From the NCBI GenBank assembly GCA_964387865.1, contig CAYLXC010000004.1:1-57441 (forward strand): DNA of 57,441 nt. Reading direction: 5' to 3'. The translations under genes and the position numbers were made by a program. Positions 47,169-49,711 of this stretch are shown here, one piece after another; positions within the stretch are counted from its first letter, which is position 1, and the number at the start of each line of letters is the position of its first letter. The stretch is from an uncultured Gammaproteobacteria bacterium. GTDB taxonomy: Bacteria > Patescibacteriota > Microgenomatia > Daviesbacterales > UBA10151. Below the pieces are notes generated by a model. That model was not told the DNA's origin. It ran no database searches and saw nothing but the letters and a program-made list of their open reading frames with translations.

Positions 47169-47726
47169 ATGAACAATAAAAAGTTATTTACTATTGAGGT
47201 CCTGAAAGTTCTTGCTGTAAGTGGAATTTTAATCGGCTCCGCCGCTCTACCGACTTTACCGATGGCAGTAAGCGGTGCTGTCAAAATCTGGAAGAATATA
47301 AACAAAAAGGATCTAGGACGAATAATTAAACGTTTAGAAAAGCAGGAAATGATTTCCATTAGGGAAAATAATAGTAAAATAGCTATTGAAGTTACAGAAA
47401 AAGGAAAAAGAAGATTACTTGAGTATGATTTTGAAAATATAGAATTAAAATCTGGAAAGAGAGATGGAAAATGGAGATTAATTATTTTTGATATACCGGA
47501 AGAAAAGAAAAGCTCAAGAGATGTTTTTAGAAGGAAACTTCTTGAACTTGGAATGATTCGTTTGCAGGATAGTGTTTGGGTTAGTGCTTTCCCTTGCAAG
47601 AATGAGATTGACTTCTTAACTAATTTCTTGGAGATTTCTAAGCATATTACGATAATATCAATTGATAAAATAGAAAGCGGCGAACAATTAATTTGGAAGA
47701 AATACCAAGATTTTGGGGACAATTAG
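47169..47726 (+). CDS. PaaX-like protein (winged HTH + Cas2-like domain)
   Basis: RIIKRLEKQEMI...VTEKGK wing; DGKWRLIIFDIPE...FRRKLLELGMIRLQDSVWV. Confidence 0.85.
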   Translation: MNNKKLFTIEVLKVLAVSGILIGSAALPTLPMAVSGAVKIWKNINKKDLGRIIKRLEKQEMISIRENNSKIAIEVTEKGKRRLLEYDFENIELKSGKRDGKWRLIIFDIPEEKKSSRDVFRRKLLELGMIRLQDSVWVSAFPCKNEIDFLTNFLEISKHITIISIDKIESGEQLIWKKYQDFGDN

Positions 47727-47758
47727 TCGCGGTCGCGACTTTATGTAACCTGAAATTT

Positions 47759-47788
47759 TTGACAAACAAGAATATTTAGTAGTAATAT
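47759..47788 (+). promoter_or_regulatory. promoter upstream of the T-box leader
   Basis: TTGACA (47759-64), 18 nt, TAATAT (47783-88). Confidence 0.6.
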
Positions 47789-47799
47789 TAAAGAGTAAA

Positions 47800-47942
47800 A
47801 GCGATGAAAGAGTTTCCCGCTCTGGAGCTGAATGCGACGAGCATTTCCGTTTGTAACGTTATAACTTATATCAAGAAGTAACTAAGGTGGTACCACGAAG
47901 TCTTCACCTTCGTCCTTAATAAAGGAAGAGGTGAATTTTTTT
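47800..47942 (+). promoter_or_regulatory. T-box riboswitch, Pro specifier, ultrashort Stem I
   Basis: K-turn AGC-GAU-GA/GA-GCU, stem AGAG/CUCU, apical loop UUUCCCG; Stem II AAUGC/GCAUU; CCGUU box; Stem III ACUU/AAGU; antiterminator AAGG-UGGUACC-ACGAAG/CUUCGU-CCUU; terminator UUCACCU/AGGUGAA + U7; upstream of csaA-proS. Confidence 0.9.
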
Positions 47943-48273
47943 GGCAAATATAGATGATTTCTTAAAACTTGATATTAGAGTTGGTAAAATACTTAAAGTT
48001 GAAGATTTTCCTGAGGCAAGAAAGCCTTCATATAAACTTACTATAGATTTTGGTGAGGAGATTGGTATCAAACATTCTTCAGCACAGCTGGTGGATTTAT
48101 ATACAAAAGATGATTTAGAGGGTAAACTAATCTTAGGAGTTGTTAATTTGGAGCCAAGGCAAATTGGACCATTTGTGTCAGAAGTTTTAACAACAGGAGT
48201 GCCGAATGATGGACACAAATGTATACTAGTAGTACCAGATAAAGATGCGCCTTTAGGATCAAAGTTATATTAA
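47941..48273 (+). CDS. csaA: CsaA/Trbp111-like OB-fold tRNA-binding protein
   Basis: DDFLKLDIRVGKI, ARKPSYKLTIDFG, VVNLEPRQIGPFVSEVL; TTG start with GAGGTG SD. Confidence 0.88.
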   Translation: MANIDDFLKLDIRVGKILKVEDFPEARKPSYKLTIDFGEEIGIKHSSAQLVDLYTKDDLEGKLILGVVNLEPRQIGPFVSEVLTTGVPNDGHKCILVVPDKDAPLGSKLY

Positions 48274-48283
48274 CTAAGTACAT

Positions 48284-49711
48284 ATGAAATCTATTACAAA
48301 AAAATCTGAGGATATCTCTGGTTGGTATAATGATGTGATTGAGAGGGCTCAGCTTGCTGAGCATGGACCAGTCAGAGGCACTATGATTTGGAGGCCAAAA
48401 GGTTTTTCTCTTTGGGAGGCAATCCAAAAGAATTTGGATGTAAAAATTAAAGATTTGGGTGCCCAAAGTGTTTATTTCCCGCTTTTTATTCCACACTCCT
48501 TTTTATCAAAAGAGAAGGCGCATGTAAAGGGATTTGCTCCAGATTTGGCAGTTGTTACTCACGGTGGTGGTGAAAAATTAAAAGAGCCTTTGGTTGTCCG
48601 TCCAACTTCTGAAACCATAATGTATGATGCTTTTTCCAGGTGGGTTCAATCTTTTAGAGATTTGCCGCTTGTGATAAACCAATGGTGTAATGTGGTCAGG
48701 TGGGAAAAACGGCCATATTATTTTTTAAGAACAACAGAATTTTTATGGCAGGAAGGACACAGCGCTCATGAAAATAATGATAACGCCCAGAAAATGGTGG
48801 ATGACGCTCTAAAAATGTATGTTGATTTTTACAAAGATGTTTTGGGGCTTTACGGATATGCAGGCAGGAAATCTGAGTCAGAAAAATTTCCGGGAGCTGA
48901 TGCAACTTATACATATGAAATCTTAATGCCTGATGGGAAAATTGTCCAAGGCTGTACTTCCCACAATTTGGGTCAAAATTTTGCCAAAGTATTTGATGTT
49001 AATTTTCAAGATAAAAATGGACAGGAGCAGTATGTTTTCCAAACTTCATGGGGACTATCCACAAGATCAATTGGTGCAATGATTTTAGTTCATGGAGATG
49101 ATAATGGTCTCATTTTACCTCCTTTGATTTCTCCAATTCAAGTTGTAGTAATTCCAATAATCACTAAAGCTTCAGACCAAAAGGGAATCAATGATTTGGC
49201 ACACAAGGTTTATGAACTTTTGGAGAGTTATAACATACGGGTTAAATTGGATGATAGCGATCAATCTCCGGGTTGGAAGTTTAATCAGTATGATTTAGAA
49301 GGAGTACCTGTAAGAATTGAAATTGGTCAATCAGAAGCAAAAGACAAAAAAGTTACTATAAAGCCAAGAGATGGAAGTCCAAAGCTAACTTTAGGATTAG
49401 ATGAGTTGGGAAGTGAGATAGAGAAAGTTTTGCACGATATACAGATTAACCTTTTTGAAAAATCAAAGCAATTTACTTCGGATAATACTAGGCAAGCTGA
49501 TAATTATGAAGATTTTAAAGAAATAATGAATACTGCCCGCGGTTTTATAGAAGCTTTTTGGTGTGAAGATAAAAATTGTGAAACAAAAATAAAAGAGGAA
49601 ACAAAAGCAACAACAAGATGTTTGCCTTTGGATGCAATTGAGGCGAATGGGAAATGCGTTTACTGTGGAAAAGAAGCCAAATTCCGCTGGCTCTTCGGCC
49701 AATCTTATTGA
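48284..49711 (+). CDS. proS: prolyl-tRNA synthetase, archaeal/eukaryotic type
   Basis: VRPTSET, FLRTTEFLWQEGH, HNLGQNFAK, QTSWGLSTRSIG, C-terminal Zn-like domain ending FGQSY. Confidence 0.97.
   Translation: MKSITKKSEDISGWYNDVIERAQLAEHGPVRGTMIWRPKGFSLWEAIQKNLDVKIKDLGAQSVYFPLFIPHSFLSKEKAHVKGFAPDLAVVTHGGGEKLKEPLVVRPTSETIMYDAFSRWVQSFRDLPLVINQWCNVVRWEKRPYYFLRTTEFLWQEGHSAHENNDNAQKMVDDALKMYVDFYKDVLGLYGYAGRKSESEKFPGADATYTYEILMPDGKIVQGCTSHNLGQNFAKVFDVNFQDKNGQEQYVFQTSWGLSTRSIGAMILVHGDDNGLILPPLISPIQVVVIPIITKASDQKGINDLAHKVYELLESYNIRVKLDDSDQSPGWKFNQYDLEGVPVRIEIGQSEAKDKKVTIKPRDGSPKLTLGLDELGSEIEKVLHDIQINLFEKSKQFTSDNTRQADNYEDFKEIMNTARGFIEAFWCEDKNCETKIKEETKATTRCLPLDAIEANGKCVYCGKEAKFRWLFGQSY

Follow-up and report, generated by a model that had tools for sequence, protein, structure and literature searches.

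A compact proline-specific T-box leader with an ultrashort Stem I, predicted to control csaA-proS in a Patescibacteria genome

Can a leader whose Stem I is reduced to one short hairpin sense tRNA-Pro and terminate transcription? The question is raised by the segment 5′ of csaA-proS in the DNA analyzed here (the window, i.e., the whole stretch of 57,441 nt), in which a preliminary description had seen, in a CPR-like genome, a T-box for Pro with its specifier in the apical loop. The Rfam match, 32 orthologous leaders, the prolyl-tRNA synthetase (ProRS) gene downstream, and the tRNA genes agree with that description. Judged by these sequence comparisons, we are highly confident that the leader is a genuine T-box, specific for Pro and with an ultrashort Stem I, and we give a probability of approximately 0.85 to the reading that it is a minimal T-box riboswitch, predicted to exert feedback control over csaA-proS by sensing the charging state of tRNA-Pro(GGG).

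The T-box leader and operon region, GUAAAAGCGAUGAAAGAGUUUCCCGCUCUGGAGCUGAAUGCGACGAGCAUUUCCGUUUGUAACGUUAUAACUUAUAUCAAGAAGUAACUAAGGUGGUACCACGAAGUCUUCACCUUCGUCCUUAAUAAAGGAAGAGGUGAAUUUUUUU, corresponds to positions 47795-47942 of the forward (+) strand, on which all features described below lie. A sigma-70-like promoter (47759..47788; TTGACA, 18 nt, TAATAT) was the top promoter match of the region (10/12), and the predicted transcript start would lie approximately 5 nt 5′ of the K-turn; TTGACA-type boxes were read by eye at the equivalent position in two orthologous loci (L026 and L036). The first gene of the operon, csaA (47941..48273, with a TTG start at 47941), encodes a tRNA-binding OB-fold protein of 110 aa (PF01588; TIGR02222, 141 bits vs. 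a cut-off of 119.65). Behind it, proS (48284..49711) encodes a prolyl-tRNA synthetase of the archaeal/eukaryote-like family I (TIGR00408, 579 bits vs. a cut-off of 437; Pfam matches ProRS-C_1, HGTP_anticodon, and tRNA-synt_2b). The matches to TIGR02222 and TIGR00408 thus bear out the two genes that had been named 3′ of the leader. Some close relatives (L032, JBBTSA010000031.1; L033; L035) carry proS without an upstream T-box, and in L032 csaA is directly 5′ of the T-box-less proS; linkage of csaA and proS is therefore independent of the riboswitch.

The genome assembly comprises 954 kb in 42 contigs and is 94% complete. The six nearest ProRS homologues (67-79% identity) belonged to MAGs; three had the label Candidatus Daviesbacteria, and the others were named Patescibacteria group or “uncultured Gammaproteobacteria.” Because of these labels, the assignment of the host to the CPR can be considered right, with Candidatus Daviesbacteria MAGs as the closest relatives. 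ARAGORN found only 32 tRNA genes in the assembly, and none for tRNA-Pro(UGG), Met, Ala, Asn, and several others; tRNA-Pro(UGG) is carried by relatives. The missing tRNA genes probably reflect assembly incompleteness.

A permissive scan of 47650-48050 with the T-box model RF00230 gave a match at 47795-47920 that covered the model end to end (53.2 bits; E = 5.4e-11 locally and 3e-11 genome-wide). The leader of csaA-proS was the sole T-box match in the 954-kb genome. The score of 53.2 bits is below the gathering threshold of 93 bits; at Rfam gathering thresholds, the whole window yielded tRNAs only. The low score is explained by the deletion of the distal Stem I, 76 model positions of which are replaced by the 7-nt loop UUUCCCG in the alignment. 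Being below the 93-bit cut-off, the leader would be missed by Rfam-based annotation.

RF00230 also matched 32 of 61 related genomes, and many of these matches were just 120-170 nt long. A covariance model, R1 (122 positions, 28 pairs), was built from five compact leaders, since MAFFT alignments of mixed T-boxes (A1 and A2) were too rough for structure counts. Homologous leaders were found with R1 in 47 of 96 family genomes; one distant proS leader (L046; loop UACCCAG, no U-run) was missed. Of the 32 orthologous leaders collected, 30 were followed by ProRS inside the downstream 1.5 kb that was fetched. For L085 and L104, the first gene is proB-like, and the sequence fetched stops ahead of any ProRS. 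ProRS is often located behind csaA (15/32), a proB-like amino-acid kinase gene, or a GNAT gene.

The synthetase behind the leader belongs to family I (archaeal-like, TIGR00408) in L001, L019, L026, L034, L036, and L081, and to family II (bacterial, insertion-less, approximately 409 aa, TIGR00409) in L011, L017, L022, L025, and L082-L103. These sequences suggest that the riboswitch was retained while the synthetase gene behind it was replaced. At several loci, two family II matches were observed, near +30 and +1240 nt; they may represent either two genes or a single split gene.

The perfect antiterminator with a UGGU-ACC bulge that had been described was present at 47883..47918. It consists of helix A1 (UAAGG/CCUUA) and helix A2 (ACGAAG/CUUCGU), with a predicted energy of -8.0 kcal/mol, and its 7-nt bulge UGGUACC (47888-94) contains the UGGU complementary to the tRNA 3′ ACCA. 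The T-box sequence AAGGUGGUACCACG (47885-98) agrees with the Rfam consensus. An intrinsic terminator hairpin (47903-47935), followed by U7 at 47936-42, was predicted at -14.5 kcal/mol and represents the MFE of the region. The 5′ arm of the terminator is the 3′ half of the antiterminator; the two folds share 47903-47918 and are mutually exclusive. A terminator that is stabler than the antiterminator is the usual energy ranking in T-boxes. An equivalent hairpin, overlapping the antiterminator and followed directly by at least four U, was found in 31 of 32 orthologues.

The same hairpin can also be read as part of a translation-only switch, as in actinobacterial ileS, in which it would sequester the Shine-Dalgarno of csaA and the U-run would be an AT-rich spacer with the start codon. 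The csaA Shine-Dalgarno GGAAGAGGUGA (47924..47934) is within the 3′ arm of the terminator, the TTG start (47941) is within the U-tract, AAGGAGGUGC occurs in this arm in many orthologues, and the ultrashort T-boxes described so far are translational (bioRxiv 10.1101/2023.02.28.530422). Against this reading, which we consider improbable, 31 of the 32 leaders have a GC-containing hairpin with 4-8 U immediately behind it, and hairpin and U-run persist where the first gene is 20-50 nt farther away and the arm has no Shine-Dalgarno (e.g., L017, L097, and L100). Because the hairpin and U-run are kept even without a Shine-Dalgarno, they represent the signature of an intrinsic terminator. We conclude from these predicted folds that the main output would be transcription attenuation, to which hiding of the Shine-Dalgarno would add an inherent second layer. 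Some of the design might be accounted for by translational control on its own, given the start codon in the U-tract; the transcriptional and translational modes are compatible rather than exclusive.

The ultrashort Stem I (47800..47829) consists of the closing stem AGC/GCU, a K-turn, a 4-bp stem AGAG/CUCU (47809-12 / 47820-23), and the 7-nt loop UUUCCCG (47813-19); the K-turn, 4-bp stem, and loop are as first described. The K-turn (AGC / GAU bulge / GA...GGA / GCU, 47800-47829) has G.A/A.G pairs and aligned to the K-turn columns of RF00230. Its closing stem is conserved or covarying among orthologues, and the K-turn assignment comes from sequence and alignment. In the 4-bp stem, GC/AU/UA/GU pair types were found at three of the four pairs among the 32 leaders, and RNAalifold recovered this stem de novo. 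Missing is the platform of the distal Stem I, which stacks on the tRNA elbow and in which an AG bulge and the distal loop form interdigitated T-loops.

The specifier is CCC (Pro) at 47816..47818, followed by the purine G47819; a purine after the specifier is the classic T-box rule. Most of the 32 leaders, including this one, have the loop UUUCCCG, and the others have UUUCCUG (three leaders), AUUCCUA (two), UUCCCAG (two), UGAUCCUAG (one), or, in L104, an intermediate Stem I with the internal loop ..AACCCG. The sole triplet frame common to all 32 is CCC or CCU followed by a purine, so that the expected conservation of the specifier among proS leaders was observed, with variation only between CCC and CCU. 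Of the two Pro codons originally offered as specifier, CCC stands and CCG does not, since the orthologous CCU-G and CCU-A would read as Leu in the CCG frame.

Both tRNA-Pro genes of the genome, tRNA-Pro(GGG) and tRNA-Pro(CGG), have A73 and an incompletely encoded CCA. The isoacceptors of relatives (GGG, CGG, and UGG) likewise all have A73, which was present in 18 of 18 tRNA-Pro genes examined. The antiterminator bulge was UGGU in 32 of 32 leaders, and the complementarity of UGG-U to the A73-CCA end of tRNA-Pro that had been pointed out thus holds throughout. Uncharged tRNA-Pro(GGG) is the most likely ligand by this match. tRNA-Pro(AGG) was absent from the CCU-specifier genomes in which it was looked for (the complete genome G097 has GGG, CGG, and UGG), and a CCU specifier would be read by G.U wobble or mismatch.

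A specifier other than CCC, either CCG read by tRNA-Pro(CGG) or UCC/UUC read by tRNA-Ser/tRNA-Phe, is very unlikely. The loop UUUCCCG does hold the triplets CCG, UCC, and UUC, and A73 is found in tRNA-Pro(CGG) and tRNA-Phe(GAA) as well. However, the CCG frame would turn UUUCCUG into CUG and AUUCCUA into CUA, Leu codons 5′ of proS or proB-like genes, and CCG is excluded by these CCU orthologues. UUC does not occur in L022 or L104, and L046 has neither UUC nor UCC; a UCC specifier would precede a pyrimidine, and the discriminator of tRNA-Ser(GGA) is G73, which does not pair with UGGU.

L104 (G117:C10:8787-8975) has a short distal hairpin and an internal specifier loop with AGUA in its 5′ strand and ..AACCCG in its 3′ strand; judged by sequence, this leader resembles an intermediate step between a canonical and an ultrashort Stem I. 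L102 (G107:C1:6712-6828), a Pro-leader homologue 5′ of csaA-proS, has the Stem I region GCAGAGCGGGAAGAGC, in which CGGGAAG is the reverse complement of CUUCCCG and no CCN codon is displayed. Stem I of L102 may be inverted or degenerate.

The reduced Stem II (47830..47847) has 6 bp, a one-nt 3′ bulge (U47845), and the pentaloop GACGA. Compensatory changes were found at five of its six pairs among the 32 leaders, and the loop is GANRA in most orthologues. The AGUA/GAA S-turn motif was not recognizable in Stem II, and the S-turn positions of RF00230 are deleted in the alignment. Next to it are the CCGUU / Stem IIA region (47847-47858) and Stem IIA (47848..47866; CGUU/AACG, loop UGU, F-box-like ACGUUA), the pairs of which covary. 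A 3-bp IIB pseudoknot can form between the IIA loop and a triplet 5 nt downstream (e.g., GAU/AUC, GAC/GUC, GGU/ACC, and UGU/ACA). This pairing was complete in 16 of 26 leaders vs. at most 4 at other offsets, and 84 of 5000 shuffles reached the observed value. The csaA-proS leader of this genome, with AC (47864-65) as the proposed partner, has only two of the three pairs. Support for the IIB pseudoknot is thus moderate on the sequence evidence. Candidate stand-ins for the elbow platform and the S-turn are the IIA/B pseudoknot and the conserved 6-bp Stem II, which has a bulged nucleotide and a GANRA loop.

By inspection of the sequence, Stem III is reduced to a purine-rich linker ending in ..AAGAAGUAAC (47867..47882), with a vestigial helix of at most 3-4 pairs. 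Alternative 3-4-bp registers are possible because of the AAGAAG repeats. No conserved Stem III helix was found among the orthologous leaders, in which the purine-rich motif AAGAAGNAA is conserved instead. Thus, the claim that every T-box module is present within approximately 140 nt was right in that all elements were located, but Stem III amounts to 3-4 possible pairs that are not conserved.

The covariation among proS leaders that had been suggested as a check was evident when the 32 leaders were placed on R1. Standard pairs made up 95.2% of cells vs. 38-43% with the 3′ partners slid, and 19 of the 28 pairs had changes on both sides, values reached in 0 of 500 shuffles, although the alignment (A5) was fitted to R1 and the pair counts are therefore somewhat inflated. 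RNAalifold, run on a plain MAFFT alignment of ten compact leaders, independently recovered the K-turn closing stem, Stem I, Stem II, Stem IIA, and helix A1, with compensatory changes at 11 pairs. A decaying remnant of a canonical T-box without a regulatory role has the slimmest chance of all: it would fit the loss of the distal Stem I, S-turn, and Stem III and the score under the Rfam cut-off, but this small layout has persisted in more than 25 genera, every helix has compensatory substitutions, and the bulge and specifier frame are invariant, a pattern indicative of purifying selection.

The core features of a T-box are thus in place (T-box sequence and bulge, specifier and purine, K-turn, and competing folds); the leader falls short of the Rfam cut-off and lacks the distal Stem I platform. 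What weighs against a functional Pro T-box is the score below the Rfam threshold, a structure without distal platform or recognizable S-turn, and a Stem III that is vestigial at best.

A second sub-architecture was observed in L025, L026, L087, L088, L091-L093, L095-L097, L099, L100, and L103. These leaders have Watson-Crick GAA/UUC instead of the K-turn GA pairs, which results in a 7-bp specifier hairpin, and an extra hairpin, often GC-rich, ahead of the closing GCU. The extra hairpin would make a three-way junction, as far as can be judged from sequence. L026, the closest relative of the window (ProRS 82% identical), has this second sub-architecture.

The steps by which the riboswitch would act follow from T-box biology, and the elements, covariation, specifier frame, tRNA match, and competing folds are those described above. 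The 4-bp hairpin borne by the K-turn would offer CCC and a stacking purine in its 7-nt loop to the anticodon GGG. If the tRNA-Pro is uncharged, then its A73-C-C-A end would pair with the UGGU bulge and stabilize the weaker antiterminator (-8 kcal/mol), RNA polymerase would read through, the csaA ribosome-binding site would be free, and csaA-proS would be transcribed and translated. If it is charged, then the second contact would not be made, the antiterminator would remain unstabilized, and the terminator (-14.5 kcal/mol, U7) would form, ending transcription and leaving the Shine-Dalgarno paired. It is doubtful that the operon-encoded CsaA helps to hold the tRNA on the leader; csaA is present in 15 of the 32 Pro operons.

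Similar leaders are frequent in the phylum. In an even sample of 301 Patescibacteria genomes, RF00230 matched with E ≤ 1e-4 in 103, and the gathering score was reached in 8; annotation at the Rfam threshold (8/301 genomes) would miss most Patescibacteria leaders. Twenty short matches from many families were fetched, and 19 were T-box-like; one (L144) was rejected as a T-box by its appearance. In 18 of the 19, the hairpin-loop codon, followed by a purine, fits the downstream synthetase as read by eye: AUC with IleRS, ACC or ACU with ThrRS, GAC with AspRS, GGC or GGA with GlyRS, and GUC with ValRS. The bulge base of these short T-boxes fits the expected discriminator. The expectation that the leader would extend the host and amino-acid range of ultrashort T-boxes was correct for Pro and Patescibacteria, and the terminator output is a further difference, but the leader is not unique: the architecture is common in the phylum and serves at least six amino acids, and the csaA-proS leader is therefore one member of a large class.

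Compared with other hairpin-loop T-boxes of Patescibacteria (Val, Ile, Thr, Asp, and Gly; L009, L015, L020, L023, L024, and L135-L154), the csaA-proS leader has in common the K-turn, the short hairpin, the codon and purine at the 3′ side of the loop, the discriminator-matching bulge base, and, usually, the terminator. Most of those T-boxes keep a canonical Stem II with the GAA/AGUA S-turn, whereas the reduced Stem II is found in the Pro group and the related Ala leader L028, and the specificities differ. L028 (G027:C1:57976-58116) is located 5′ of a gene that was taken, by eye, for AlaRS. In Stem II, IIA/B, and the linker, L028 hardly differs from the Pro leaders, but its specifier is in an internal loop, GG-GCC-AA, and there is also a small distal hairpin. 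A reading of this internal loop GGGCCAA as CCA (Pro) was rejected because the downstream AlaRS-like gene indicates GCC (Ala) followed by A. The sequence likeness of L028 to the Pro leaders points to a duplication within the family and a later switch of specifier.

Short-Stem-I T-boxes were also observed 5′ of genes other than synthetase genes (L014, L016, L021, and L029; proteins named by eye). These encode proteins like archaeal-type PEP carboxylase (loop ..AAC-A), PurU (loop ..GGC-A, bulge UGGA), argininosuccinate lyase (loop GUCGCGA, bulge UGGC), and CysK (loop GUUGCGA, bulge UGGA).

Relative to canonical RF00230 T-boxes (e.g., Bacillus subtilis tyrS and glyQS), the csaA-proS leader shares the K-turn, the specifier and purine, F-box/IIA, AAGGUGGUACCACG, the exclusive antiterminator and terminator folds, and an aminoacyl-tRNA synthetase gene under predicted control. 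It differs in length, being approximately 126 nt to the end of the antiterminator vs. roughly 200-300 nt, in the lack of 76 distal Stem I model positions, and in its vestigial Stem III. Pro T-boxes are known for proBA/proI.

Ultrashort Stem I has been described for actinobacterial ileS T-boxes (Sherwood, Grundy & Henkin 2015, as cited in PMC7583486 and bioRxiv 10.1101/2023.02.28.530422). According to the 2023 preprint, all ultrashort T-boxes regulate ileS and respond to tRNA-Ile (bioRxiv 10.1101/2023.02.28.530422). The csaA-proS leader resembles them in its very short Stem I with the specifier in the terminal loop, the lack of a double-T-loop elbow platform, the retained UGGN bulge, a putative Stem IIA/B pseudoknot (here with two of three IIB pairs), and the possible sequestration of the Shine-Dalgarno by the off-state hairpin. 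In contrast to those translational T-boxes, which are restricted to ileS and tRNA-Ile, it is Pro-specific and found in Patescibacteria, it ends in a hairpin and U7 and thus departs from a translational-only design, and only a 6-bp hairpin is left of Stem II, with no recognizable S-turn. The apical Pro specifier and the predicted terminator therefore set it apart from the ultrashort T-boxes in the literature searched, i.e., the translational actinobacterial ileS T-boxes. The translational model of TBDB was searched in Actinobacteria only (PMC7778990), and a review treats the distal Stem I platform, the Stem II S-turn, and Stem III as needed for transcriptional T-boxes (PMC7583486). A full-text literature search for T-box with CPR, Patescibacteria, Saccharibacteria, Parcubacteria, or Microgenomates returned nothing relevant, and the class appears to be undescribed in the literature searched.

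A view drawn from structural and kinetic work holds that co-transcriptional T-boxes need the long Stem I platform for fast tRNA capture. A conserved 126-nt Pro T-box with a terminator challenges this requirement for transcriptional T-boxes. We give about even odds to the wider proposal of an undescribed, phylum-wide T-box class in which a K-turn-mounted hairpin with a loop codon and an NCCA-binding bulge would suffice for co-transcriptional tRNA sensing, with no elbow contact and no S-turn, and with Stem II reduced to a stub in the Pro/Ala subgroup. The interest of the finding is moderately high for the class and lower for the single locus. The leader represents a natural minimal scaffold for structural work and for engineered tRNA-responsive switches, and its sequence suggests that bacteria with genomes of approximately 1 Mb and few regulators would still monitor tRNA charging.
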